A stretch of DNA of 64,000 bases from a virus: the UHGV virus genome UHGV-1364187; one strand, given 5' to 3'. The position numbers and the translations under genes are program-made. A model generated the notes under the pieces. The model did not search any database and was not told the origin of the DNA. It saw nothing but the letters and a program-made list of their open reading frames with translations. The first letter of the stretch is position 1. Each line of letters opens with the position of its first letter. Shown here piece after piece: positions 7,759 to 46,649 of this stretch.

Positions 7759-8109
7759 TTAGAAGTGTTTCTGTTCTTTTATTCTCTTAATCTTCTCTAA
7801 TTGTTCTTGAGAATAGTTCTTTCTAGATAATCCAATAAGTGTATTAATATTAATAATAGTATCTCTTGAGTGGTTCATTGCTTTATTAAACATACCATTA
7901 TTTCTAGAGATATATAATGCATTTCTTGGATTAAGAACTTTAAATGCTTCTTCATAGAATGCTTTGTTATTAATTAGGAATATAGATAACGTATCACCAT
8001 CAAAATCTGCAGCCATAGTCTTTAAGATCTGTAATGGTAATGCCATTGTATATGTGTCTAATATTCCTACTACATGCATTTGTAAAATACTTCCATATGA
8101 AATTGTAGG
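7759..8109 (-). CDS. rpoC: multisubunit RNAP beta-prime N-terminal fragment, exon 2 (catalytic NADFDGD loop)
   Basis: PTISYGSILQMHVVGILDTYTMALPLQILKTMAADFDGDTLSIF...LNPRNALYISRNNG aligns with E. coli beta-prime APTLHRLGIQAFEP...AAYNADFDGDQMAVH...STNNILSPANGEP. The frame is open upstream as far as a stop codon at 8137..8139. Confidence 0.8.
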   Translation of the reverse strand, partial: PTISYGSILQMHVVGILDTYTMALPLQILKTMAADFDGDTLSIFLINNKAFYEEAFKVLNPRNALYISRNNGMFNKAMNHSRDTIININTLIGLSRKNYSQEQLEKIKRIKEQKHF

Positions 8110-8600
8110 CTCCGTCTTCACATAGAGTCGTGACTTCTATGCAGTTCTCTTATGAACTTCTATGAGTATTACTCATAAGGAGAGACTATATCTTCATCTT
8201 TTACTATTCTTATATTATTTCAAATATAAGATACTACTAGCAGTCAGATGCCTTGCACTTCGGATATACTATATCCTACTCTACTCACTTCGTCTATATC
8301 TAATTTATTAGATATACCTTATTTTTAACTAGATTACTAGTATATTAGCTTTCGATAGTCGTTGAACCTTCTCCTATATAATTTATATAAGAGCTTGGCT
8401 GCTGATTGGACATTGTTTGTTACTTGGCACGATACTTAGGCTCTCACCATATATCATCTTAATGATTATTTCTGTCTTTCGACTGCCATTCACGCTTACC
8501 TGTTACAGTTACGTTGTAGCTCATTAAGCATTAGCCCTTCCCAGACAAGTTCACAAGGTTTTTCTCCGTACATTTCTGTAGGGAGGACCCATCCACAAAT
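8110..8600 (-). ncRNA. group I self-splicing intron (491 nt, no ORF) inside the beta-prime gene
   Basis: The 5' exon ends in U (..AAU CGA CCU) and the intron ends in G (..GACGGAG). The intron 5' end (AUUUGUGGAUGGGUC) contains GGGUC, which can pair with the exon end GACCU to form P1 with a U.G wobble. An R-like element (GACUAUCGAAAG) lies near 8345-8360 and an S-like element (GAAGAUAUAGUCUC) near 8178-8190 on the minus strand. The upstream ORF reads through for 34 unrelated codons to a stop. The spliced junction restores the conserved ILINRP|PTISYG (E. coli LLNRAPTLHRLG). Confidence 0.75.
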
Positions 8601-9761
8601 AGGTCGATTTATTAAAATAGGTATACCTTGACCGTCATCTATTAAAGATTGAATAATATTTCTAACTCTTTGGTCTTCTTGAATAGTGGCATAATACCAA
8701 ATATTATGTGCTTCATCATAAGACATATTATAAGATTTTACTAAAACATTTATAATTCTCTGTTCTAATAATCCTACTAATGCAAAGTATGATAATTTTA
8801 CTTGGTCTACTTTTAATGTATCATCTGGAATGATTACACATCTAGAAGAGAAGTTAAATCTTCCTCCGAATACTCCTCTAAATATACCTTTCTTTCCAGA
8901 TAATATATTTTCAACTTCAGCATAAACTTTATTAAGTTTATATTGTAAATCGTATAATAATTGTAATTTAGGTTTCTTCTTTCTATGAATACGTAATGTA
9001 TTCATATTGATATCATGAACTAATTTTACAATCATATTATACAATCCATTAATATCGTTGAATACAAAGTTTCCACCATCAAGTTTGAATGGTCTTAATA
9101 GTGTCGTAAATATTGGTATAGAATGAGTAAATATCTTATCTTTATTCTCTAACAAATCAAGATAAGTATCAGTCTTAGCTTTCTTATTAGAAGAATTATT
9201 GTAATAATAATCTAAAACTGTTTCAAAGTTATCTCTTAACCATAATATACCTTTTCCTTTATATGGTTCATCTTTAACTTGTTTATTTTCTTCTATTGTA
9301 AATCCATCTTCATTCTTATTGTCTATTGGTTTTATGATATTATAAAGTTTCTCTGTTCCAATAATAGTCTCTAATTCTTTATATAGATTAGGATGGATTA
9401 TACAATATTCATCTTTCAATACTGTCCAACCAAATAAGTCATAATTATCATCAACAAACTTTACTTTAGTATTACATATAGGACATGTCATGCCATTATT
9501 AATTTTACCCATAGTGTAACCACATGAACATTTATATTTGTTAATGAACGGGTTAGAGTCATTTAATGTAGAACCAAATCTAGTACTAAAAATACCATTT
9601 GGTTCTTTTAAATCCTTCTTAATGTTTTGATGTTGAAAGATAATGAACCCGTTACCAGTACGAAGATCATTATCTTTCTCTTTATCCAAGTCAATTCTTT
9701 CTAGTAATGTTTCAACTTTAAATAAATTTCCAAGTTCATCTACAAGATGTGGATAATTCAT
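8601..9761 (-). CDS. rpoC: multisubunit RNAP beta-prime N-terminal fragment, exon 1 (Zn ribbon, clamp, lid)
   Basis: The Zn-binding motif CSCGY...CPIC matches the beta-prime N-terminal CxCGK..CxxC. IPIFTTLLRP matches LPVLPPDLRP, and GKKGIFRGVFGGRFNFSSRCVI matches [23 protein letters not shown]. RBS gaaggagatg. Confidence 0.8.
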
Positions 9762-9827
9762 ATTTATATCATCTCCTTCAATAATATAATATATAAGTTA
9801 ATAATAAGTTACATATACATTAATTTT

Positions 9828-11274: not shown

Positions 11275-11298
11275 CACATATATAATATATAATCAAAA
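11275..11298 (-). promoter_or_regulatory. conserved AT-rich phage promoter-like motif (copy E)
   Basis: The minus strand reads tttgattatatattatatatgtgagt, about 40 nt upstream of the ATG at 11236. Confidence 0.45.
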
Positions 11299-14068: not shown

Positions 14069-14524
14069 TTATTCGATTACTAATTTAGATTTAACAATAG
14101 TAATTGCTAATTCTTTATCTTTAAAAATCATCGGTAAGATATCTTTACCATCATATACTCTAAAGTCAGGTCCACATAATTCTGTAACGATTCCTTTGAT
14201 TGCTGGAAGTATATACTTTTCTCTAGCAATATATCCATCATCGTAAGATTCAATCATCTTTACAATCTTTTGTCTTTGAATTGTATTTTCAACTTTACCA
14301 TTTGTTGGTAATTGTTTTACCAATTTCTTAATATCGATAAGTGTTTTAAGAGGATTAGTTCTAAATAATTCCTCTGTAATCTTTTCTGCTTCTGTTTCTT
14401 TAAATCCTTCTGGATTGAATAATGATACCTTTTTATTTGTTCTTTCTGTTTCCATAATTCTAATACCCTCCATAATTGCACCTAATAATTCTACTTCTTC
14501 TTGTGTGAATGCTTTTACTATCAT
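14069..14524 (-). CDS. hypothetical protein (151 aa)
   Basis: ORF only. Confidence 0.45.
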   Translation of the reverse strand: MIVKAFTQEEVELLGAIMEGIRIMETERTNKKVSLFNPEGFKETEAEKITEELFRTNPLKTLIDIKKLVKQLPTNGKVENTIQRQKIVKMIESYDDGYIAREKYILPAIKGIVTELCGPDFRVYDGKDILPMIFKDKELAITIVKSKLVIE

Positions 14525-15300
14525 TTTTAAACAACTCCTTTAATATTATTATTGTATTATTTACACTATTATAATATATAAGTGAAATATTAGACTTTTA
14601 CATAATATAATAACACACTAAGTCACATAGGGGATGAGCTTAGTGTGTTATTAATTTGGTAGATTGATGGTTAAGCAAGCAAAGTGGATTGTTTGCTAAA
14701 AAAATAGTGTTTTTTTGGAGTAAGACAATATTTGATATTACTTTGTATTTTGGGATTTGACTTAAGACAAATACTTGTCTCAAATATATGTTATTATATT
14801 TTAAAAGTTTAATATCCACCATAGATTTTACTCTATGGTGGATATACACACAAAAAAGGAAAGAAGAAAAAGAAAAAAAGTTTTAATATGGTTTACTAAT
14901 ATGTTATATTGTATAAAAAGATAAAAACCTATACTATTATAGTATAGGTTTTTACAAATAAATTTAAAAGGAGATTGCTTAATACAAAAAGACTTATATC
15001 CCGATGGATTATATATATATGTTTATAATAAAAAAATAAGATAAGCCATAATAGCTTATCTTATTTTTCAAAAGAATTGTAGAGTTAAAAAAACAGCTAA
15101 TTTAATATATAAAGGATTATTTATATGTTTATTAAAATTTAAACCTTAATAATCTCAGCTTGTATTATCATATTTTTATCTTCAGAATAATATATAATTA
15201 AAAAATTAGACCATACTATAAAAAGTATGGTCTAATTTAATATGTTTAGAACATTAATATAATAAAATAACGAAAAAATAAACTATAACCAGTAGAGTTC
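14525..15300. other. 776-bp non-coding region containing at least five perfect hairpins
   Basis: Hairpins at 14611-14650, 14812-14845, 14924-14953, 15035-15065 and 15205-15236, several flanked by T-runs on both strands. No convincing ORF; the ORF at 14640..14849 is low-complexity and looks spurious. Confidence 0.5.
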
Positions 15301-16137
15301 CTAATAGAAGCAGAGATAAGTTATATCAAGGCTCTTTGTATATTCGTTAAGTGGTTCGCTTGGAAAATGAAGAACCGTTAATGGTCTGATGGATTCATAA
15401 TATATATACCCATTAATTTCGTGTTTATACCCAGTTAATAATGAAATAGCATTAATTTTTGCAGTATCTAATCCAGTTGTAGATGCAAACCATTCTCTAC
15501 AATCATCTACTGTAATTTTCAATTTCAATTGAACAAATGATTCAATCTCTAAAGTATTAGTTGAATCAAATACATTAGCATCAATAGGAGTACCGTCAAC
15601 ATATCTTTGAATAAGTTCTGGTTCTGTATCAAATGCTTTAAAATAATAAGCAATTTTTCCATTAGTAAGTGCTCTACCAAAATATCTAGTTCTATCTAAA
15701 TCTGATAGATCATTAGGTGGAGTAATATATCTAAATGGAACTAAATCACTAGGTTTAATCCATTTTGAATAATCAACATCATATACTTGATGTTGTTCTT
15801 GTCCACATCCACCGACACCAACAGCAAATAGACAAACTACTTCATCTCTTCTAACTCCAGGTTCTGGGTTAGGAGTATTTAAAGTGTTTTCTAATCCCAA
15901 TACCGTATTATACGATGGTGTTCTTGTTGGCACATCAATATTATAATGTTTCATCATAGTAAATGCTGAACCTGATACAATGACTTTATTATGTAAGCCT
16001 TGATGTAATACATTTCCTAAACCATCTTTAATAGTGATTAATGATCCAGGACGTTGTATATTAGCTTTATCTGCATTACGAACAGCATCTGATAAAATTC
16101 GCATTTGTTCTTGTTGTTCATCTGTAGGAATAGCCAT
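15301..16137 (-). CDS. hypothetical protein (278 aa)
   Basis: RBS aaaggaggaatt upstream of the ATG. No motifs. Confidence 0.5.
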   Translation of the reverse strand: MAIPTDEQQEQMRILSDAVRNADKANIQRPGSLITIKDGLGNVLHQGLHNKVIVSGSAFTMMKHYNIDVPTRTPSYNTVLGLENTLNTPNPEPGVRRDEVVCLFAVGVGGCGQEQHQVYDVDYSKWIKPSDLVPFRYITPPNDLSDLDRTRYFGRALTNGKIAYYFKAFDTEPELIQRYVDGTPIDANVFDSTNTLEIESFVQLKLKITVDDCREWFASTTGLDTAKINAISLLTGYKHEINGYIYYESIRPLTVLHFPSEPLNEYTKSLDITYLCFY

Positions 16138-24490: not shown

Positions 24491-24514
24491 TCATATATAT
24501 AATATATAATTAAA
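24491..24514 (-). promoter_or_regulatory. conserved AT-rich phage promoter-like motif (copy B)
   Basis: The minus strand reads tttaattatatattatatatatgaga, about 30 nt upstream of the ATG at 24460. Confidence 0.45.
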
Positions 24515-30665: not shown

Positions 30666-30690
30666 TTTCGATTATATATTATAAATATGA
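30666..30690 (+). promoter_or_regulatory. conserved AT-rich phage promoter-like motif (copy F, plus orientation)
   Basis: tttcgattatatattataaatatga, about 48 nt upstream of the ATG at 30739. Confidence 0.45.
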
Positions 30691-31448: not shown

Positions 31449-31871
31449 ATGTTAGTATTAGGAAAATTCGATTATGTATATTCAGATCAACAAAAAGATG
31501 CATTAAGAAACGCAATTACTAATAATATTGAAGTTGGTGATATTAAAAATCCAGGCATTCCATTGAATCTTATGGAAACATATATTGAACTTAGGTCTTA
31601 TGGGTATGATATTGAATTTTTAGAAGATCACGGTATTGGACTTTTAAGTATAACTTATCTGGATTGCCTTAAGGAATTAGCCAGAAATGATATTGATATT
31701 TATCAATTCATCTATTGTGATAAATTTATACCATATGACAATAGACAAATACTTACTATTACTGATGGTCTATTAGAAGGATTTGATATTAGATACTTTG
31801 GAAATATTAATCTATCTAATACAGAAATGAGAGAAATTATTGAAACTTTAAAGAAGGAGAGAATAGCATAA
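31449..31871 (+). CDS. hypothetical protein (140 aa)
   Basis: RBS ataggagatg. Confidence 0.45.
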   Translation: MLVLGKFDYVYSDQQKDALRNAITNNIEVGDIKNPGIPLNLMETYIELRSYGYDIEFLEDHGIGLLSITYLDCLKELARNDIDIYQFIYCDKFIPYDNRQILTITDGLLEGFDIRYFGNINLSNTEMREIIETLKKERIA

Positions 31872-32200
31872 TGAATTATAGAACAATATATTATCAACCA
31901 TCATTAGCAAATAAAGTCTTACATAAATCTATCAATCTACGTAAGATTAAATATTCAGGTTATAAAAGTAAACATGAAGCAATTAATCATGTTATATATA
32001 GAAATATACTGAGATTAATAAGTAGTATTGGCAGTTATATAGAATTCGAAGTATCTACAAAATTTGTAGATGATTTTACTATAGAAATAGATTTAAACTA
32101 CTATAAAGTACTTAATAGAATGAGATTTTATGAACTTATTATAGCTTTATGCACTACCGATTATGTACAAGAAGATCAAATAAAAGAATTTGATATATAG
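31871..32200 (+). CDS. small hypothetical protein, paralog of 32213..32575
   Basis: MNYRTIYYQPSLANKVLHKSINL is nearly identical to the N-terminus of the next gene, MVYRTRYYQPSLANKVLHRSVDL. Confidence 0.5.
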   Translation: MNYRTIYYQPSLANKVLHKSINLRKIKYSGYKSKHEAINHVIYRNILRLISSIGSYIEFEVSTKFVDDFTIEIDLNYYKVLNRMRFYELIIALCTTDYVQEDQIKEFDI

Positions 32201-32212
32201 GGAGATAATTTT

Positions 32213-32575
32213 ATGGTATATAGAACAAGATATTATCAACCATCATTAGCAAATAAAGTCTTACATAGATCTGTTGATCTATGTAAGATTAATTATTATA
32301 GTAATACTAATAAGAAAATTGCACTTAAGTCTGGTATAAATAGTACTATAATGAGCATGTTATCTCAAATTACGAAAGATTATATGTATAATGTAGAATT
32401 TGAAATATCAACAGTATTGAATGGGGAAATATTGGATATTTATATAAAGTATTATAAAGTTATCAATAATATGGATTTATTAAATATTACTATAGATCTA
32501 AAATGTATCTCTCTAAAAGTATATATATCTGATAAAGATTTTAATAATATATTAAGAAAGCTTAAATTGATATAG
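32213..32575 (+). CDS. small hypothetical protein, paralog of 31871..32200
   Basis: Shared N-terminal ~25 aa. RBS tagggagat. Confidence 0.5.
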   Translation: MVYRTRYYQPSLANKVLHRSVDLCKINYYSNTNKKIALKSGINSTIMSMLSQITKDYMYNVEFEISTVLNGEILDIYIKYYKVINNMDLLNITIDLKCISLKVYISDKDFNNILRKLKLI

Positions 32576-32598
32576 ATATCTTTTGTGATATCTATATC
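32570..32598 (+). terminator. hairpin terminator
   Basis: Arms gatatagatatc and gatatctatatc, followed by tttatttttt. Confidence 0.55.
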
Positions 32599-32794
32599 TT
32601 TATTTTTTGTAAAATTGTATTGGTATATAAAAATTATTATCTCAAATATCTCTATAATATTATTGTATAGATTATAAATATACATATATACTTTATTAAA
32701 GTATATATGTATTATATCAATATTTTCATCTATTGTTTTGTTGTATATTATGGAGATTTTTATAGATCTCCCTGATTTCCTTCTGTAATTTTTC

Positions 32795-32825
32795 AGGGTT
32801 CCTAGTCAACGCCTTTAAAAGCCCC
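32795..32825. repeat. GC-rich 31-bp direct repeat, copy 1 (agggttcctagtcaacgcctttaaaagcccc), followed by a C6-TA-C6 tract
   Basis: Exact 31/31 match with 33146..33176. Both copies are followed by ...tttgtta. Confidence 0.8.
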
Positions 32826-33145
32826 CCTACCCCCCATTACTTTTTTGTTATATATTTTATAAATTATTATATCAAAATATCTATATTTATATATAAAAAT
32901 TGAGAAATCTGTATTACAATATTGATATCTATCTTATATTGATAAATATGTATTGTAATATAGATTGTTATGATATGTAAATAAAGTTATGTGTATATTG
33001 TATATCTATGTTTTTATATAGATGATTTTATTATAGAGATATAGATATCTCAGATTTGTATCTAAAGTATATCTATATCTCTATAATATTTATATATGTA
33101 TATTATCTATGTATTTATCATTGTTTTCCTCTTATCTATCTTTTA

Positions 33146-33176
33146 AGGGTTCCTAGTCAACGCCTTTAAAAGCCCC
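33146..33176. repeat. GC-rich 31-bp direct repeat, copy 2
   Basis: Identical to copy 1, 351 bp away. The interval between them is AT-rich and carries GATATAGATATC-family palindromes, including a 17-bp inverted repeat at about 33040-33095. Confidence 0.8.
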
Positions 33177-33282
33177 TTAGTATTTTGTTAGAACTTTAAT
33201 AAAATTTAAATATGGACAGTATATGAATAGTATAAAATATACTAAATATAAGGAGGAATTGAATATGAATATTATTTAATCA

Positions 33283-33654
33283 ATGATTAATGAAAAATTA
33301 GGAGAAGTAAGAGTAATTAGAAGTGAAGATGGTAATGTAATGAATACATTATTTTGTGCATTAGATGTTGCAAGAGCATTAATGTATACTGAAAATAGTA
33401 TAAGAAATGCAATTAATAGTCATTGTAGATATGTGTCAAAAATACACGTACATCATCCACAAAATCCAGATAAAACAATTAGTATCAATTTTATTCCATT
33501 ATGTGATGTATTTTCATTAATATATGGATCATGTAAAGAAGAAGCTGAAGAATTTAGAAGATGGATTAATGAAGATGTACTACCACAGTTATATCAATTT
33601 GGTACGTATACAGTTAAAGATTATATTCCAGATTTACCATTAGGTAATCCATAA
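33283..33654 (+). CDS. Bro-N domain protein, second paralog; N-terminal part, ended by an in-frame TAA
   Basis: Bro-N signature GEVRVIRSEDGNVMNTLFCALDVARALMYTENSIRNAI. RBS taaggaggaatt. ORF 33685..33957 lies in the same frame 30 nt later and resembles the C-terminal half of the 30739 paralog. Confidence 0.6.
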   Translation: MINEKLGEVRVIRSEDGNVMNTLFCALDVARALMYTENSIRNAINSHCRYVSKIHVHHPQNPDKTISINFIPLCDVFSLIYGSCKEEAEEFRRWINEDVLPQLYQFGTYTVKDYIPDLPLGNP

Positions 33655-33957: not shown

Positions 33958-34093
33958 TATAAAAGAGTACATTGTACTCTTTTATTTTTTGTCTATATAC
34001 GTTAGTATTGAACTTATATTTTTCTGTAAACAAAATCTTAATCAATTATATATTATATATATGAATATAATAATATTGAAAGGAGATTGTATT

Positions 34094-42990: not shown

Positions 42991-43055
42991 ATTTAATGTC
43001 TAATAAACACTATAACATCATAGTAATTCTAGATATTTTAAGGAGGAATTTATTT

Positions 43056-43919
43056 ATGGAAGAATTTAAAAGTGTAATTAAAAGAAATGGTAAAATTGTA
43101 GATTACGATAGAAATAAGATTAAAACTGTTGTTAGAAATAGTGGTCTTACAGATGAAGATAAATTAGAAGAATTTACATTGGAAGTTGAAAAACGACTAC
43201 TAATAGAAAATGAATCAGTTGATCATCAAGGTATATTTGATGTTGAACTAATTCAAGATATTATCATCCATCTGTTAGGACTATTAGGATATAAAAACGA
43301 ACAAAATGAGTATAAGAGATATAAGAAAGAACGAGAAAAGATTAGACAGTCTAAATCTGATTTATTAAAAGTGGTTCATTCATTAGGTGTTGAAACTGAT
43401 AGAGACAATGGGAATGTTGGTAATAACTTCAGTGCCAAGTTATTACGTATTGCTAGCGAAACAAATAAATGTACGAATCTAGCATTAAATATTCCTAAGC
43501 ATTTAGCGAAACCTCATGAAAATCATGATTACCATACTCATGATCTAGATAGTTATAATCTTACTACAAATTGTTTACATAATGACACTGGTGCTATATT
43601 AAAGAGAGGATTTAATACTGGATATGGGTGGATTAAACCACCTAAAAGAATCGAATCAGCTGCCAACCTTACATGTATTATTATTCAATCACTTCAGAAT
43701 GATTTTTATGGTGGGCAATCTTGTGTTGATATTGATAATGACCTTGGTGAATATGTAGAACCAACAAGACAAGAAATTATTGAAAGATTAGAACCTACAA
43801 GAAAATATGTACCAGAAGATGTATTCAATGATACAGTTGAAAGAATGTTAGATGAACAAATTCATCAAGCAGCACAGAATATTTGTTATAATCTTAATAC
43901 TATGCATAGTAGAGCAGGT
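43056..43919 (+). CDS. nrdD: anaerobic ribonucleoside-triphosphate reductase NrdD, exon 1 (ATP-cone and N-terminal barrel); 3' boundary +/- 6 nt
   Basis: RBS aaggaggaatt. ATP-cone MEEFKSVIKRNGKIVDYDRNKIKTVV. The exon ends ..NTMHSRAG(Q), matching E. coli ..NTLHTANGQ. Confidence 0.8.
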
Positions 43920-45077
43920 CAAGATGACTTAGCCGTGTTAGATAGAAATATCTAATATGATTATCGGGGAAATTCGGTAGAGGTCTAAGTAAGATTATCA
44001 ATTAAAAAGAAATGATGATATTTATGAATTATAATAAAACTGAAATTGAAAGATTATATTTTGAAGAAAATATGACATATGATCAAATATCTGAAATTGT
44101 AGGATGTTGTAAATCTACTATAGGAAATATTATTAGATCAAATCCAAACTATAAAAAGAAATCACAAACACTATATAGTAATCCATTATTAGATGAAAAT
44201 TATTTTGAAATAATAGATACAGAAGCAAAAGCTTATATATTGGGACTTATGATAACAGACGGGAATGTTTGTTATTATGGTGATGGATATCGTATTAGAT
44301 TACAATTAAAATATGAAGATTCTTATATTTTAGAATTCTTTAAAAATCAGATTCACTGTTCCAATAAACTTATTGTTGATAAGCGAGATGGTTCTATTGC
44401 ATTTAGTATAAAATCAGAAAAGATGTTTTATGATTTATCTAAATATGGAGTAGTTCCTAATAAAACTTTAAATAATTATGTTCCACCAAATATACATCCA
44501 ATGCTAATGCCTCATTTAATAAGAGGAATATTTGATGGTGATGGTTGGATATCAAAATCGTTTGATAAAAATGGAAAGAAACATATAGCTATTGGTATTT
44601 GTGGAAATGAAAATTTTCTTCAACAATTCAGGATATATTAGTAATAAATGCTCGAGTAAATATGAATATTATAAATTCTTATAGCTCAATTAATGAAGCT
44701 CCATTATACCAAACAATGTGGTGTTCTATTGGAGATATTATTAGATTATATAGTTATTTATACATAGGTGCTAATATATATCTATTTAGAAAATATCATA
44801 CTATAATTGATATAATTTTATATGAAAATACCGAGAGGGCTTTAATCGAAAGTCTTTGTAACGCATAGGAGTTGAACGTTATGATAGTAAAAATACTCCC
44901 AAGAGTCTCCGACACAATATACTATAGGTATATTTGAGGTGGAAATTGCTCACCACCAAACCTAACGTTAAACGAGGGTGAATATATATGCTAGGCTGGA
45001 TTGGAAATGACCAATCGATGAAAATGAGGGAAACCTCCAGAGGTCTAGATAAAAAGCTAGACGTTAATAACAGTCCG
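43920..45077 (+). ncRNA. group I intron 1 in nrdD (~1.16 kb), carrying a LAGLIDADG homing-endonuclease ORF
   Basis: It interrupts conserved HSRAGQ|VPFSS. A heptamer GGTCAAG is shared at both exon ends, so the exact junction is ambiguous. R-like CCGAGAGGGC..AUCGAAAG and UCCGACAC elements resemble those of intron 2. Confidence 0.7.
44012..44641 (+). CDS. intron-encoded LAGLIDADG homing endonuclease (double-motif)
   Basis: Motif 1 AYILGLMITDGNV and motif 2 LIRGIFDGDGWI. Located wholly inside nrdD intron 1. Confidence 0.8.
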   Translation: MMIFMNYNKTEIERLYFEENMTYDQISEIVGCCKSTIGNIIRSNPNYKKKSQTLYSNPLLDENYFEIIDTEAKAYILGLMITDGNVCYYGDGYRIRLQLKYEDSYILEFFKNQIHCSNKLIVDKRDGSIAFSIKSEKMFYDLSKYGVVPNKTLNNYVPPNIHPMLMPHLIRGIFDGDGWISKSFDKNGKKHIAIGICGNENFLQQFRIY

Positions 45078-45380: not shown

Positions 45381-45689
45381 TAACAGAAAATGTTACACGG
45401 TTTCTACAGCTCATGTAAAACCTATCTAAACAGGGAAAGCTCATAAGAGTCAATCCTGTGCTAAATTCTAATATTATATAGAATATATAATTATTTATAC
45501 ATTGTATATAGTACTAGATAAATGCCGAGAGACTATCGAAAGACTATTTTATATAGAATCAAGTAGAGTAGGATACAAGTGTATTCGAAAAGATAGGCTT
45601 AGATATTTATATTATCTATGAAGATATAGTCCGACACCTATAGTGATATAGGAAAGATTATGGAAACGATAATCTTATAACAAGAAATG
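45381..45689 (+). ncRNA. group I intron 2 in nrdD (309 nt, no ORF)
   Basis: The 5' exon ends AUGGGU (U at the splice site). The IGS GCUCAU at ~45410 pairs with AUGGGU (P1 with U.G). The R element is GCCGAGAGACUAUCGAAAG and the S element UGAAGAUAUAGUCCGACAC. The intron ends ..AAAUG (omega G), and the next exon begins UGU (Cys of MGCRTYVG). Confidence 0.8.
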
Positions 45690-46649
45690 TGTAGAACATA
45701 TGTAGGTACAAATATCAATGGTCAAGAAGGACCATCTAGAAGAGGAAATAATGCACCTGTTACTATTAATTTACCTAGATTAGGTATTAAAGCTAAAGGT
45801 GATTTAAATAAATTCTGGAGTTTATTAGATGATATGCTTAATTTATGTAAAGAATCTTTATTACATAGACATAGTATATTATGTAAACTTAGAGTAAAAG
45901 ATTTACCATTTGCTGCAGGAGAAGGTATTATGATGGGTTCAGAAAATCTTGGACCTGATGATACTATCGAACCAATTCTTAAGAACGGAACATATGGAAT
46001 TGGATTTGTAGGTTTAGCTGAAACATTAGTAGCATTAATTGGTAAACATCATGGTGAATCTAAAGAAGCTGACGAATTAGGATATAAAATTGTAAGTCAC
46101 ATTAGAGAATATTGTGATAAAACTAAAGAAGAGACACATCTTAATTTCTCATGTTACTATTCACCTGCTGAAAGTACAGCTGGAACATTTGCAAATGCAG
46201 ATAGAGAAAAATATGGTATTATTAAAGGAGTTACTGACCATGATTTCTATACAAATTCTGTTCATATTCCAGTGTATTATAATATCTCTATTAAAGATAA
46301 GATTGATATTGAATCTAAATATCATTATTTAGGAAATGGTGGTCATATCTTTTATGTGGAAGTTGATGGATATCCATCTAAAGAACAAATTAAGAAAATT
46401 GTAGATTATGCGTTTGATCAAAGTGATATTAGTTATATGGGAATTAATTTCCATATTAGATATTGTAAAAAATGTGGTAAACGTGTAACGAATAATGTTA
46501 TGGTATGTGATTGTGGAAGTACAGCTTTCCAAGGTATTAGTCGTATTACTGGATATTTAGCCCTAGATGGAAGATGGGGTCAAGGAAAAGTTGCAGAAAG
46601 AAAAATGAGAGTATCGCATACTACAGGTAAAAATGTATATACAGAATAA
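45690..46649 (+). CDS. nrdD: NrdD exon 3 (C-terminal half, with Zn ribbon and glycyl-radical loop)
   Basis: CRTYVG..NNAPVTINLPRLGIKAKGDLNKFWSLLDD matches E. coli CRSFLG..NNLGVISLNLPRIALEAKGDEATFWKLLDE. Also GVTDHDFYTNS, CKKCG..CDCGS, and the glycyl-radical motif RITGYL. Confidence 0.85.
   Translation, partial: CRTYVGTNINGQEGPSRRGNNAPVTINLPRLGIKAKGDLNKFWSLLDDMLNLCKESLLHRHSILCKLRVKDLPFAAGEGIMMGSENLGPDDTIEPILKNGTYGIGFVGLAETLVALIGKHHGESKEADELGYKIVSHIREYCDKTKEETHLNFSCYYSPAESTAGTFANADREKYGIIKGVTDHDFYTNSVHIPVYYNISIKDKIDIESKYHYLGNGGHIFYVEVDGYPSKEQIKKIVDYAFDQSDISYMGINFHIRYCKKCGKRVTNNVMVCDCGSTAFQGISRITGYLALDGRWGQGKVAERKMRVSHTTGKNVYTE

Follow-up and report, generated by a model that had tools for sequence, protein, structure and literature searches.

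Antisense control of phage genes is exemplified by the oop RNA of lambda, which is complementary to the 3' end of cII, and by the sar RNA of P22, an antisense regulator of the antirepressor gene ant. Transcription also activates certain replication origins, as occurs at the primary origin of T7, where the tandem promoters 1.1A and 1.1B are combined with an AT-rich region, at oriF and oriG of T4, in ColE1 through RNA II, and at the mitochondrial CSB II element. To our knowledge, no replication origin has been defined in the group of AR9-like phages.

In phage AR9, the non-virion RNA polymerase works from late promoters with the consensus AACA-N6-T[A/G], whose last base is the transcription start (Lavysh et al. 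2017, PMC5312081). The early consensus of the same phage is AAATATATATTAT-N6-G, and antisense RNAs arise from some of its late promoters (PMC5312081). A different arrangement is represented by the PeSL cassettes of T4-type phages, which join a sigma-70-type early promoter to a terminator stem-loop and occur in many copies around variable ORFs (Arbiol et al. 2010, PMC2839356; Comeau et al. 2014, PMC4122927).

The Source Genome and Its Predicted Promoters

The DNA analysed here, a stretch of 64,000 nucleotides referred to as the window, is part of the genome of an uncultured 256.5-kb AR9/PBS1-like gut jumbo phage. Like AR9, it has split multisubunit RNA polymerases, the split beta and beta-prime genes having been identified with Phrogs, and the top isolate matches are Listeria phage LPJP1, the Bacillus phages PBS1 and AR9, and Staphylococcus jumbo phages. 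No close relatives were found in the INPHARED phage collection or in IMG/VR, and the latter also lacks a 27-mer of the repeat discussed below.

The early promoter consensus is nearly identical to that of AR9. It recurs in the window as ATTATATATTATATATATG, in four exact and three one-mismatch copies, of which those compared with the list of open reading frames lie upstream of co-oriented genes; allowing up to three mismatches, 12 matches are found in the window against 2.7 expected. Each of the four exact occurrences of the early-promoter 19-mer in the window stands upstream of a gene. With one mismatch to this 19-mer, ATTATATATTATAAATATG (30671-30689, plus strand) is the putative AR9-type early promoter, for the virion RNA polymerase, of an operon headed by a Bro-N gene (Bro-N-1), and an exact match at 34045-34063 on the same strand serves the next operon. 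As regards the late motif, AACA-N6-T[A/G] occurs 17 times in the window within 80 nt upstream of same-strand gene starts, against 4.9 expected, with an enrichment at 20-50 nt that is shared with AR9. It has to be noted that AACA-N6-TA is a motif of low information, with 148 matches in the window. A scan for sigma-70 promoters returned 52 candidates against 61 expected from shuffled sequences, showing no excess.

A Non-Coding Gap between Two Bro-N Modules

The locus spans positions 32576-33282, a gap of 707 nt with 21% GC, free of open reading frames and containing many perfect palindromes. A preliminary description of this DNA had placed it, without ORFs, between two Bro-N modules, and on both points it was right: ORFs contained entirely in the gap do not exceed 37 aa, and both flanking modules start with a Bro-N gene (Pfam PF02498, E values of 1e-17 and 3.5e-12). 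A gene hidden by an alternative genetic code was rejected, as the region is still not open throughout when TGA, TAG or TAA is reassigned, the longest open frames under any single stop reassignment covering 62-149 of 235 codons; the neighbouring genes use the standard code. Known structured RNAs, including introns, riboswitches and CRISPR repeats, were also discarded, with no match to covariance or tRNA models. The window contains no tRNA and gives no tRNA, tmRNA or Rfam match at gathering score, and in the interval 32300-33500 a search of Rfam at E values of up to 10 yielded chance-level hairpin matches only. The earlier view of the region as a functional non-coding element, rich in repeats and palindromes and harbouring no hidden gene, is upheld.

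The first palindrome, GATATAGATATC / GATATCTATATC at 32569-32598 on the plus strand, had been counted among the palindromes of a candidate origin or protein-binding array. The terminator scan and the sequence itself identify it as the ordinary intrinsic terminator of the upstream Bro-N-1 operon, with a 12-bp stem, a 6-nt loop and the T-run TTTATTTTTT. The whole element begins 7 nt ahead of the point at which the stop codon of a 120-aa gene ends. The 12-mer GATATAGATATC does recur, as described, being found in the region in three exact copies and one with a single mismatch; the rest of the window has four copies, all with one mismatch, which gives a total of 8 matches against 2.4 expected.

The repeat search also corrected a reported 17-bp inverted repeat: the repeat and its 20-nt spacer are real, and its arms, at 33029-33048 and 33069-33088, are in fact perfect over 20 bp. 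It carries GATATAGATAT, a motif common to the terminator. A hairpin formed by ACATATATACTT, likewise reported before, corresponds to a perfect 16-bp palindrome, ATACATATATACTTTA-T-TAAAGTATATATGTAT, at 32680-32712, and a further hairpin at 32906-32966 has 16-nt arms, AATCTGTATTACAATA and TATTGTAATATAGATT, which are 94% complementary and enclose a 29-nt loop. Folding adds a short GGAGAT...ATCTCC hairpin at 32752-32771, downstream of the first copy of the repeat described below when the minus strand is read. None of these four features is assigned to a strand. Folding was compared between strands in order to tell RNA-level from DNA-level hairpins, and the fold signal of the locus is strand-symmetric (z scores of -6.5 vs -6.8 and of -9.5 vs -9.7), so the hairpins could act as DNA.

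At the other end, positions 33249-33285 of the plus strand contain AAGGAGG, a 4-codon upstream ORF, ATGAATATTATTTAA (33266-33280), and the start codon of the second Bro-N gene, Bro-N-2 (33283). The cassette formed by Bro-N-2 and a 90-aa gene is not preceded on the plus strand by any promoter motif, early or late, that would belong to it.

The 31-mer Repeat and Its Putative Promoter Box

The most conspicuous element of the gap is the 31-mer AGGGTTCCTAGTCAACGCCTTTAAAAGCCCC, present, as first noticed in the preliminary description, in two exact copies at 32795-32825 (W1) and 33146-33176 (W2), in plus-strand coordinates. No further copy with up to three mismatches exists in the 64 kb, and none of 100 shuffled sequences contained a match. 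For several kb around the two copies, no other intergenic 30-nt stretch reaches 53% GC, and the first copy is followed by a C6-TA-C6 tract at 32822-32835; both the GC-rich islands and the tract had been described before. Likeness extends beyond the core, reaching 89% between 32780-32825 and 33131-33176, and 77% between 32833-32863 and 33173-33203, the latter pair being shifted by an 11-nt insertion.

The repeat is read best on the opposite strand, on which the 31-mer lies directly downstream of an AR9-type late-promoter motif. On this minus strand, each copy is preceded by a 26-nt box, TTTATTAAAnTTnTAACAA-N5-TA, which contains the AR9 late consensus AACA-N6-TA, its final A being the predicted start, as in AR9, and a G-run follows; thus, W1 reads TAACAAAAAAGTA and then ATGGGGGG, and W2 reads TAACAAAATACTA and then AGGGGC. 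The W1 box, TTTATAAAATATATAACAAAAAAGTA (32838-32863, minus strand), has two mismatches, with AACA at 32849-32846 and the predicted start A at 32838, and the W2 box, TTTATTAAAGTTCTAACAAAATACTA (33178-33203, minus strand), has none, with AACA at 33189-33186 and the predicted start A at 33178. By chance, 0.08 matches to the box would be expected in the window. The 31-mer would occupy positions +14 to +44 of the transcript predicted from W1, 5'-GGGGCUUUUAAAGGCGUUGACUAGGAACCCU, and positions +3 to +33 of that predicted from W2. According to the alignment of the units, the C6-TA-C6 tract, G6-UA-G6 in the predicted minus-strand transcript, is due to the W1-specific insertion of 11 nt between the predicted start and the 31-mer.

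Taking into account the box, the AR9 late motif and a third copy that stands in front of a gene (see below), the 31-mer is best explained as the beginning of the leader transcribed from a minus-strand cassette of some 60-120 nt, formed by a promoter and a 5' leader whose activity and start sites are predicted from sequence. To this explanation, including the late transcription from W1 and W2 proposed below, we give a probability of about one half. Its parts would be the 26-nt AT-rich box, the G-run at the predicted start and the GC-rich leader. There are differences from AR9. The motif is embedded in the longer conserved TTTATTAAAnTTnTAACAA box, which lies outside the AR9 consensus, a G-run and a GC-rich leader come after it, and only one of the three copies of this predicted promoter has a gene downstream. 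In AR9, late promoters have no known requirement for the conserved sequence upstream of AACA, and the box may bind something else. Read on the plus strand, the box presents TTGTTA and, after N17, a hexamer of -10 type (TACAAT in the relatives L012 and L014), which makes a sigma-A-type promoter on that strand possible.

Other identities for the 31-mer were rejected. As an RNA it forms no stable structure (z of about 0 on either strand), a hairpin that reaches into the flank of W2 being absent from W1, and it lacks an adequate stem for an intrinsic terminator. Neither a mimic of a CRISPR repeat nor a host attachment site is supported, a 20-mer of the core being missing from 185,579 GTDB genomes and a 27-mer from IMG/VR, and the sole match to this 20-mer in JGI metagenomes (L011) is a chance occurrence in GC-rich DNA.

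Neither W1 nor W2 is followed by an ORF or by a minus-strand terminator with a U-tail. An invertible promoter switch has been considered, in which the segment 32862-33230 would flip between the short inverted repeats TATATTTTATA (32851-32861) and TATAAAATATA (33231-33241), turning W2 towards the promoterless Bro-N-2 cassette. In a contig from another gut sample (L002), the sequence from 33231 on is preceded by 32851-32913 in reverse complement, with the joint exactly at this 11-bp repeat; moreover, the Bro-N-2 cassette shows neither early nor late motif on its own strand, as stated above, and the units of L012 are arranged in inverted orientation. However, the junction rests on 52 nt at the very end of the contig, and short inverted repeats commonly give rise to fold-back chimeras as a library artefact. 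Furthermore, no recombinase gene was found in the window, where one HNH protein has a weak match confined to an HTH segment, and two contigs from other samples that span both copies (L003 and L005) share the orientation of the window. We therefore regard such a switch as highly improbable.

A Third Copy in Front of a Small Gene

The 31-mer is not specific to the locus. A third exact copy (W3) lies about 100 kb away on the same 256,505-bp contig, in a 93-nt gap in which it belongs to the predicted promoter and the 5'-UTR that precede a small gene. Three is the count for the approximately 94 kb scanned of the 256 kb, and another 9.7 kb to the right of the window provided no additional copy. W3 is oriented with the gene, and it is followed by GAGAGGAGAG and by the ATG of a conserved 40-aa gene; a Shine-Dalgarno site is present, and the ATG lies 66 nt downstream of the predicted start. 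This gene forms a conserved pair with a 70-aa gene, upstream of a tubulin (PhuZ-like) gene. The promoter-leader cassette would in this case drive the pair.

The longest substring common to W2 and W3 is an identical run of 53 nt (33129-33181, minus strand), which includes the 31-mer. In W1, all 31 core positions are kept and the immediate flanks have diverged from those of W2 and W3.

In relative L026, the homologue of the 40-aa gene is a 44-aa gene, preceded by a 53-nt gap with AACA-ATTTAA-TA 24 nt upstream of its ATG. The intergenic unit of the L048/L026 lineage resembles this small-gene promoter, a resemblance that is suggestive only. In the L012 lineage, a protein search with the partial 70-aa homologue returned nothing.

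The Locus in Related Phages

A syntenic non-coding locus of 0.7-1.35 kb is found in four lineages, always flanked on one side by the terminator of an early operon and on the other by genes that adjoin the virion polymerase beta gene at its 3' end, with polymerase identities to the window phage of 74% in L012 and 63% in L014/L048. Across these relatives the box is conserved at the locus, and the leader and the surrounding repeats are lineage-specific. The motif AACA-N6-T[A/G] is present in W1 (32849), W2 (33189), W3, the first unit of L012 (X1), L013 and L014/L048, and the full box has no mismatch in W2, W3, L012 and L014/L048, against two in W1. The unit of L014 was also recovered independently by nhmmer (E of 9e-4). 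In L012, the second unit lies in the opposite orientation and reads TACA where the others read AACA. Around the units, L012 shows inverted arms of 130 nt and nine copies of ATTACAAT in 764 nt, against none in the remaining 10.7 kb. In L048 the repeats are three tandem copies of 144 bp, unrelated to the 31-mer, each with the perfect palindrome TGTGCAC-TTAC-GTGCACA. No iteron is common to the four lineages, which share only AT-rich low-complexity words. The unit was not recognisable in a more distant relative, L046, and AR9 has no comparable non-coding locus beside its homologous virion polymerase gene (g189).

This distribution bears on the possibility that the repeat is a mobile regulatory cassette, or a recombination scar in a hyperplastic region, copied as PeSLs are, W1 and W2 being left-overs of modules reshuffled among the small early genes, with no dedicated role at the site. 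Its three dispersed copies share an identical core of 31-53 nt between unrelated flanks, which in PeSLs, too, suggests copying by recombination (PMC2839356), and, as with PeSLs, this short promoter cassette is repeated in a plastic region of small genes of unknown function. The plasticity is reflected in tandem paralogues that are 79% identical (31877-32013 and 32219-32355), in the two Bro-N modules, in an HNH endonuclease gene, and in the count of small genes that separate the locus from the polymerase gene, which differs in every relative. In addition, the leader of the 40-aa gene measures 66 nt here and 24 nt in L026, as if a copy of W2 had replaced it. Nevertheless, a scar would not keep its box perfectly, at the same locus, in phages whose polymerases are only 63-74% identical. 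The PeSL comparison also fails in other respects: the promoter here is of late type, without a terminator stem-loop, and it is known in three copies (in the 94 kb scanned) rather than many, with neither mini-circles nor deletion variants seen. No contig has lost the 351-bp segment, and the sole hybrid junction, between W2 and W3 in contig L004, is the joint of a 100-kb deletion at 2.7x coverage, probably an assembly chimera. On this evidence, a mobile cassette or scar seems unlikely.

The 31-mer might instead be an operator to which a DNA-binding protein of the phage attaches, such as a Bro-N protein, co-regulating the locus and the 40-aa/PhuZ locus. If protein and site co-evolved, the core would be identical within a genome and diverged between phages, which agrees with the 31 of 31 identical positions of the three copies amid diverged flanks and with cores that are only partly alike between the window (TTCCTAGTCAAC) and L012 (TTCCT-GTCCAC), the boxes on either side being conserved. 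Bro-N genes do flank the locus here. However, the 31-mer has neither dyad nor internal repeat symmetry, and gene conversion would account for the identity within the genome equally well. As for the Bro-N proteins, the connection made in the preliminary description is unsupported, because Pfam gives no Bro-N match for the genes recorded beside the homologous locus of L048; none is recorded beside that of L013 either. An operator is, accordingly, very unlikely.

Possible Functions of the Orphan Copies

For W1 and W2, late non-coding or antisense transcription is the most likely function. They would act as tandem orphans, 351 nt apart, aimed leftwards at the terminator and 3' end of the Bro-N-1 operon, and a phage polymerase would fire them late in infection. 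The products would be hairpin-rich non-coding transcripts sharing the 5' leader of the 40-aa mRNA and running antisense into the early Bro-N-1 operon, and this antisense RNA could damp or clear early Bro-N-1 expression, in a manner similar to lambda oop or P22 sar. As in these two systems, the putative promoters lie downstream of an early operon and point back into it and, as with sar in P22, the operon to be targeted codes for a protein of antirepressor type. On the other hand, the RNAs predicted here would be longer and would be made by the phage polymerase.

A second, rather unlikely role is that of a transcription-primed replication origin, in which transcription from the late promoter would generate a stable RNA-DNA hybrid at the G-run next to AT-rich palindromes, an initiator would bind the lineage-specific repeats, and the transcript would open or prime the DNA. 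It is somewhat less likely that the non-coding locus is the origin, or one origin, of the AR9-like lineage with the 31-mer and G6-TA-G6 as the hybrid-forming segment. The maintenance of a non-coding locus in four lineages of gene-dense phages would fit an origin, as would the fact that each lineage has its own repeats (the two 31-mers and the GATATAGATAT palindromes in the window, together with those of L012 and L048). The same can be said of the G-run after the predicted start in every unit, of the 17.8% GC between both cores, of the strand-symmetric structure signal, as DNA palindromes would give, and of a cumulative GC skew minimum at about 30-31 kb within the window. Tandem phage-polymerase promoters, G-runs after the start, AT-rich palindromic DNA and lineage-specific repeats are also features of transcription-activated origins, and the G6-TA-G6 of W1 resembles mitochondrial CSB II.

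Against this, the 31-mer and its box are at W3 an ordinary gene promoter and mRNA leader, other intergenic regions are just as AT-rich (16.5-23% GC), and no initiator, helicase-loader or primase gene, nor any other replication gene, is adjacent. The iteron array of the earlier proposal is not borne out. Iteron origins have at least three close direct repeats, and in the window there are only two copies, separated by 351 bp, the third being in a 5'-UTR 100 kb away; the repeat spacings, 351 and 144 bp, do not resemble those of iterons, and the lineages have no iteron in common. Regarding the skew, its sign follows the gene strand throughout the window, and gene orientation flips repeatedly both there and in L015.

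Implications

In the AT-rich DNA of phages, GC-rich islands may be the leaders of transcripts from the opposite strand, a point to be kept in mind during annotation. At a wider scale, the AR9-type grammar of early and late promoters reaches uncultured jumbo phages of the human gut, making their transcription maps predictable from sequence. In these densely coded genomes a gene-free locus has been conserved whose sole conserved element is an orphan late-promoter unit amid rapidly evolving repeats. This makes the locus a concrete candidate for one of two roles, the control of early, antirepressor-like genes by late antisense RNA or the initiation of replication in these phages.

The repeat and its gene-free gap

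The 31-mer AGGGTTCCTAGTCAACGCCTTTAAAAGCCCC occurs as exact copies at 32795-32825 (W1) and 33146-33176 (W2), with no further copy in the window at up to three mismatches and none in 100 shuffles. Similarity between the two outruns the 31-mer by about 15 nt leftward (89%) and about 30 nt rightward (77%), and the C6-TA-C6 tract was created by an 11-nt insertion in W1. No ORF longer than 37 aa lies wholly within the gap 32576-33282, and Bro-N genes head both flanking modules (Bro-N-1 on the left, Bro-N-2 on the right). The exact pair in an ORF-free gap between Bro-N genes, as given in the preliminary description, is thus confirmed, and its palindromes are equally real: the GATATAGATATC motif, a perfect 20-bp inverted repeat (arms 33029-33048 and 33069-33088) and a perfect 16-bp palindrome at 32680-32712. 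However, one of the palindromes regarded there as a candidate array (32569-32598) is a mere terminator of the upstream operon. A hidden gene under an altered genetic code was rejected, the gap staying closed with any single stop-codon reassignment. The feature is real and non-random, but in detail it is not what was proposed for it, the 31-mer being instead part of a predicted late-promoter and leader cassette.

Early and late promoter motifs in the genome

The window comes from a contig of 256,505 bp from a gut metagenome (ENA ERZ27229639); other human gut samples contain pieces identical to it. Its genes include those for split multisubunit RNA polymerase subunits and for virion proteins, as well as for a 3,355-aa protein and a PhuZ-like tubulin. 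By the 1,445-aa polymerase subunit, the homologue of the AR9 virion polymerase beta subunit g189, the closest isolates (about 30-33% identity) are Listeria phage LPJP1, Bacillus phages PBS1/AR9 and Staphylococcus jumbo phages.

The AR9 early-promoter consensus, AAATATATATTAT-N6-G (PMC5312081), appears in the window as the 19-mer ATTATATATTATATATATG, with four exact copies at 24492, 26540 and 28300 (minus strand) and 34045 (plus strand), and three with one mismatch at 11275 (minus), 30671 and 47024 (plus). Allowing up to three mismatches raises the count to 12, where 2.7 would be expected, and the copies checked against the ORF list, including 30671 and 34045, sit upstream of co-oriented genes. 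Judged by its sequence, ATTATATATTATATATATG corresponds to the early promoter of AR9, the one used by the virion polymerase. The late motif of AR9, AACA-N6-T[A/G], is also over-represented in the 80 nt ahead of same-strand starts (17 hits against 4.9 expected). Taking into account that the early consensus is recognisable and the late motif is enriched ahead of genes, the AR9 promoter grammar can be applied here.

The early promoter at 30671 (plus strand) drives Bro-N-1 and three small genes, and this operon is closed by a canonical intrinsic terminator (32569-32598; 12-bp stem and T-run). Two of the small genes are tandem paralogues of 109 and 120 aa (31871-32575; 79% nucleotide identity between 31877-32013 and 32219-32355), without a family match in Pfam or PHROGs. 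To the right of the gap, Bro-N-2 and a 90-aa gene, terminated at 33959-33985, have no early or late motif of their own on their own strand, and the following operon starts from the early promoter at 34045 (plus strand). At 33249-33285, a strong Shine-Dalgarno, AAGGAGG, serves a four-codon upstream ORF, ATGAATATTATTTAA (MNII*), which stops 2 nt ahead of the Bro-N-2 ATG; this ATG has no Shine-Dalgarno of its own, and the arrangement suggests translational coupling or a leader peptide.

Elsewhere in the window, a second large non-coding stretch (14525-15300; 776 nt, 21% GC) contains at least five successive perfect hairpins, with an early-promoter-like motif that lies immediately outside the 14524 boundary and precedes the next gene; the stretch yielded no promoter-leader unit. 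A polymerase beta-like gene is split (7759-8121 and 8496-9761) by a GC-richer non-coding insert (8122-8495), and an anaerobic ribonucleotide reductase gene (42996-43955 and 45687-46649) by GC-richer non-coding inserts at 44642-44987 and 45384-45686 and an extra ORF at 44012-44641. Rfam intron models did not match the inserts at gathering score, and for the reductase region they gave nothing below an E of 0.1 either.

The cassette on the minus strand

Read on the minus strand, both copies of the 31-mer are preceded by TTTAT(T/A)AAA..T.TAACAAAA...TA, which includes AACA-N6-TA, and a G-run follows immediately after this predicted promoter motif (W1, TAACAAAAAAGTA then ATGGGGGGTAGGGGGGCTTTT; W2, TAACAAAATACTA then AGGGGCTTTT). 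The 26-nt box TTTATTAAANTTNTAACAANNNNNTA has no mismatch in W2, two in W1 and no other match in the 64 kb, where 0.08 would be expected by chance. The W1 core is perfectly kept while its flanks have diverged, as would be expected if the leader is under selection or if short-patch gene conversion has acted; the data fit either.

The third copy, W3, was reached through L004, a contig from another sample that links the Bro-N-2 side of W2 to unrelated DNA, in which two small encoded proteins map to the same 256,505-bp contig. This exact 31-mer lies in L015, at about 99.4 kb on the contig and some 100 kb away from the window, and is oriented in the genome as W1 and W2 are. It occupies a 93-nt intergenic gap, co-oriented with the flanking genes, in the order box (no mismatch), AAGGGGC, 31-mer, GAGAGGAGAG and ATG of a 40-aa gene, downstream of which come a gene for a 70-aa membrane protein, then an early promoter and the gene for tubulin. 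In L026, a related phage whose tubulin is 66% identical, a 44-aa homologue is preceded by a 53-nt gap in which AACA-ATTTAA-TA stands 24 nt upstream of the ATG. From the W3 order and this homologue it follows that the cassette reads as a putative promoter and 5' leader in a proper genic context, and that it would work on the minus strand of the window.

W2 and W3 share an identical run of 53 nt (33129-33181; L015 9808-9860). Across it, L004 (identical with L017) is a W2/W3 hybrid at 560-720, equal to a 100-kb deletion joint; given its coverage of 2.7x, an assembly chimera is the probable explanation. Breaks at or near W2 also occur in several low-coverage contigs.

The only hint of an invertible promoter is an inversion junction in L002, from another gut sample (1-63, against window 32851-32913 and 33231 onwards), falling exactly at an 11-bp inverted repeat (TATATTTTATA/TATAAAATATA). 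If true, it would point W2 at Bro-N-2. However, its support is 52 nt where the contig ends, which makes a fold-back artefact likely. An invertible promoter is highly improbable.

A conserved non-coding locus in relatives

Relatives were found through polymerase homologues. In each of the lineages of L012 (74% identity), L014/L048 (63%) and L013 (51%), a non-coding stretch of 0.7-1.35 kb occupies the equivalent position, past the early-operon terminator and ahead of the genes that adjoin the virion polymerase gene at its 3' end. The box is perfectly kept in L012 and L014/L048, with the G-run again next to it (ATATGGGG and ATAAAGGGGGAAGAGGGG, respectively); in L013, AACA-N6-TA and then ATCGGTCGGGC are recognisable, the full box matching poorly. 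Read on the plus strand, the box is a possible sigma-A-like promoter (TTGTTA-N17-TACAAT in L012 and L014), which would supply Bro-N-2 with a promoter but would be senseless at W3.

The leader after the box is only partly alike between lineages (TTCCTAGTCAAC vs TTCCT-GTCCAC), and the remainder of the locus differs lineage by lineage. L012 (9074-9837) has two inverted promoter-leader units in arms of about 130 nt, 92% alike (9218-9348 and 9628-9765) and 279 nt apart; the word ATTACAAT occurs nine times in this 764-nt locus and never in the other 10.7 kb of the 11.5-kb contig. In L048 (6563-7261), one late-promoter unit points into three 144-bp tandem repeats (starts 6738, 6882 and 7026), each holding the perfect GC-rich palindrome TGTGCAC-TTAC-GTGCACA, absent elsewhere in L048 and from L026; they look like an array of protein-binding sites. 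That the 31-mer itself would be the operator of a co-evolving DNA-binding protein is quite improbable. The L013 locus (14291-15644) consists of 1.35 kb of GC-richer hairpins, and on either strand it folds much more stably than shuffled sequence (z -9.5 and -9.7). One of its segments, GGGGAGATTAATATAACG, is similar to the stretch around the Shine-Dalgarno and start codon of the 40-aa gene (GGAGAGATTAATATATG), though no ORF goes with it. No Rfam family or tRNA matched the relatives' loci, and neither the more distant relative L046 nor AR9 has a recognisable counterpart.

A gene-free conserved locus with repeats specific to each lineage, G-runs after the predicted start (G6-TA-G6 in W1) and strand-symmetric palindromes could also be a transcription-primed replication origin. 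This is doubtful, taking into account that at W3 the identical cassette is an ordinary mRNA leader, that the repeat spacing is unlike iterons, that the AT content is unexceptional, that GC skew tracks gene orientation and that no replication genes are adjacent. The dispersed copies and plastic neighbourhood recall the PeSL cassettes, small promoter and stem-loop elements of T4-type phages (PMC2839356), but a mobile cassette of this kind, or a recombination scar, is unlikely with the box perfectly conserved at the locus across lineages.

Orphan copies and possible antisense transcription

The feature as a whole is a cassette of a predicted phage late promoter and its leader, some copies of which stand as orphans in a conserved non-coding locus. 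This cassette, to which the 31-mer belongs, is present three times in the genome, and what is conserved in it is the 26-nt box with the late-promoter motif inside. A conserved small gene follows one copy, and W1 and W2 are tandem orphans in the conserved locus, aimed at the 3' end of the early Bro-N-1 operon. With a probability of roughly 0.5, the boxes are active late promoters: those of W1 and W2 would fire on the minus strand, and the orphans would yield non-coding RNAs that share the 5' leader of the 40-aa mRNA and extend, in antisense, into the early operon. Such transcription has functional analogues in lambda oop and P22 sar. Some late promoters of AR9 drive antisense RNAs (PMC5312081). 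The early-promoter 19-mer allows early operons to be mapped from sequence in an uncultured phage.
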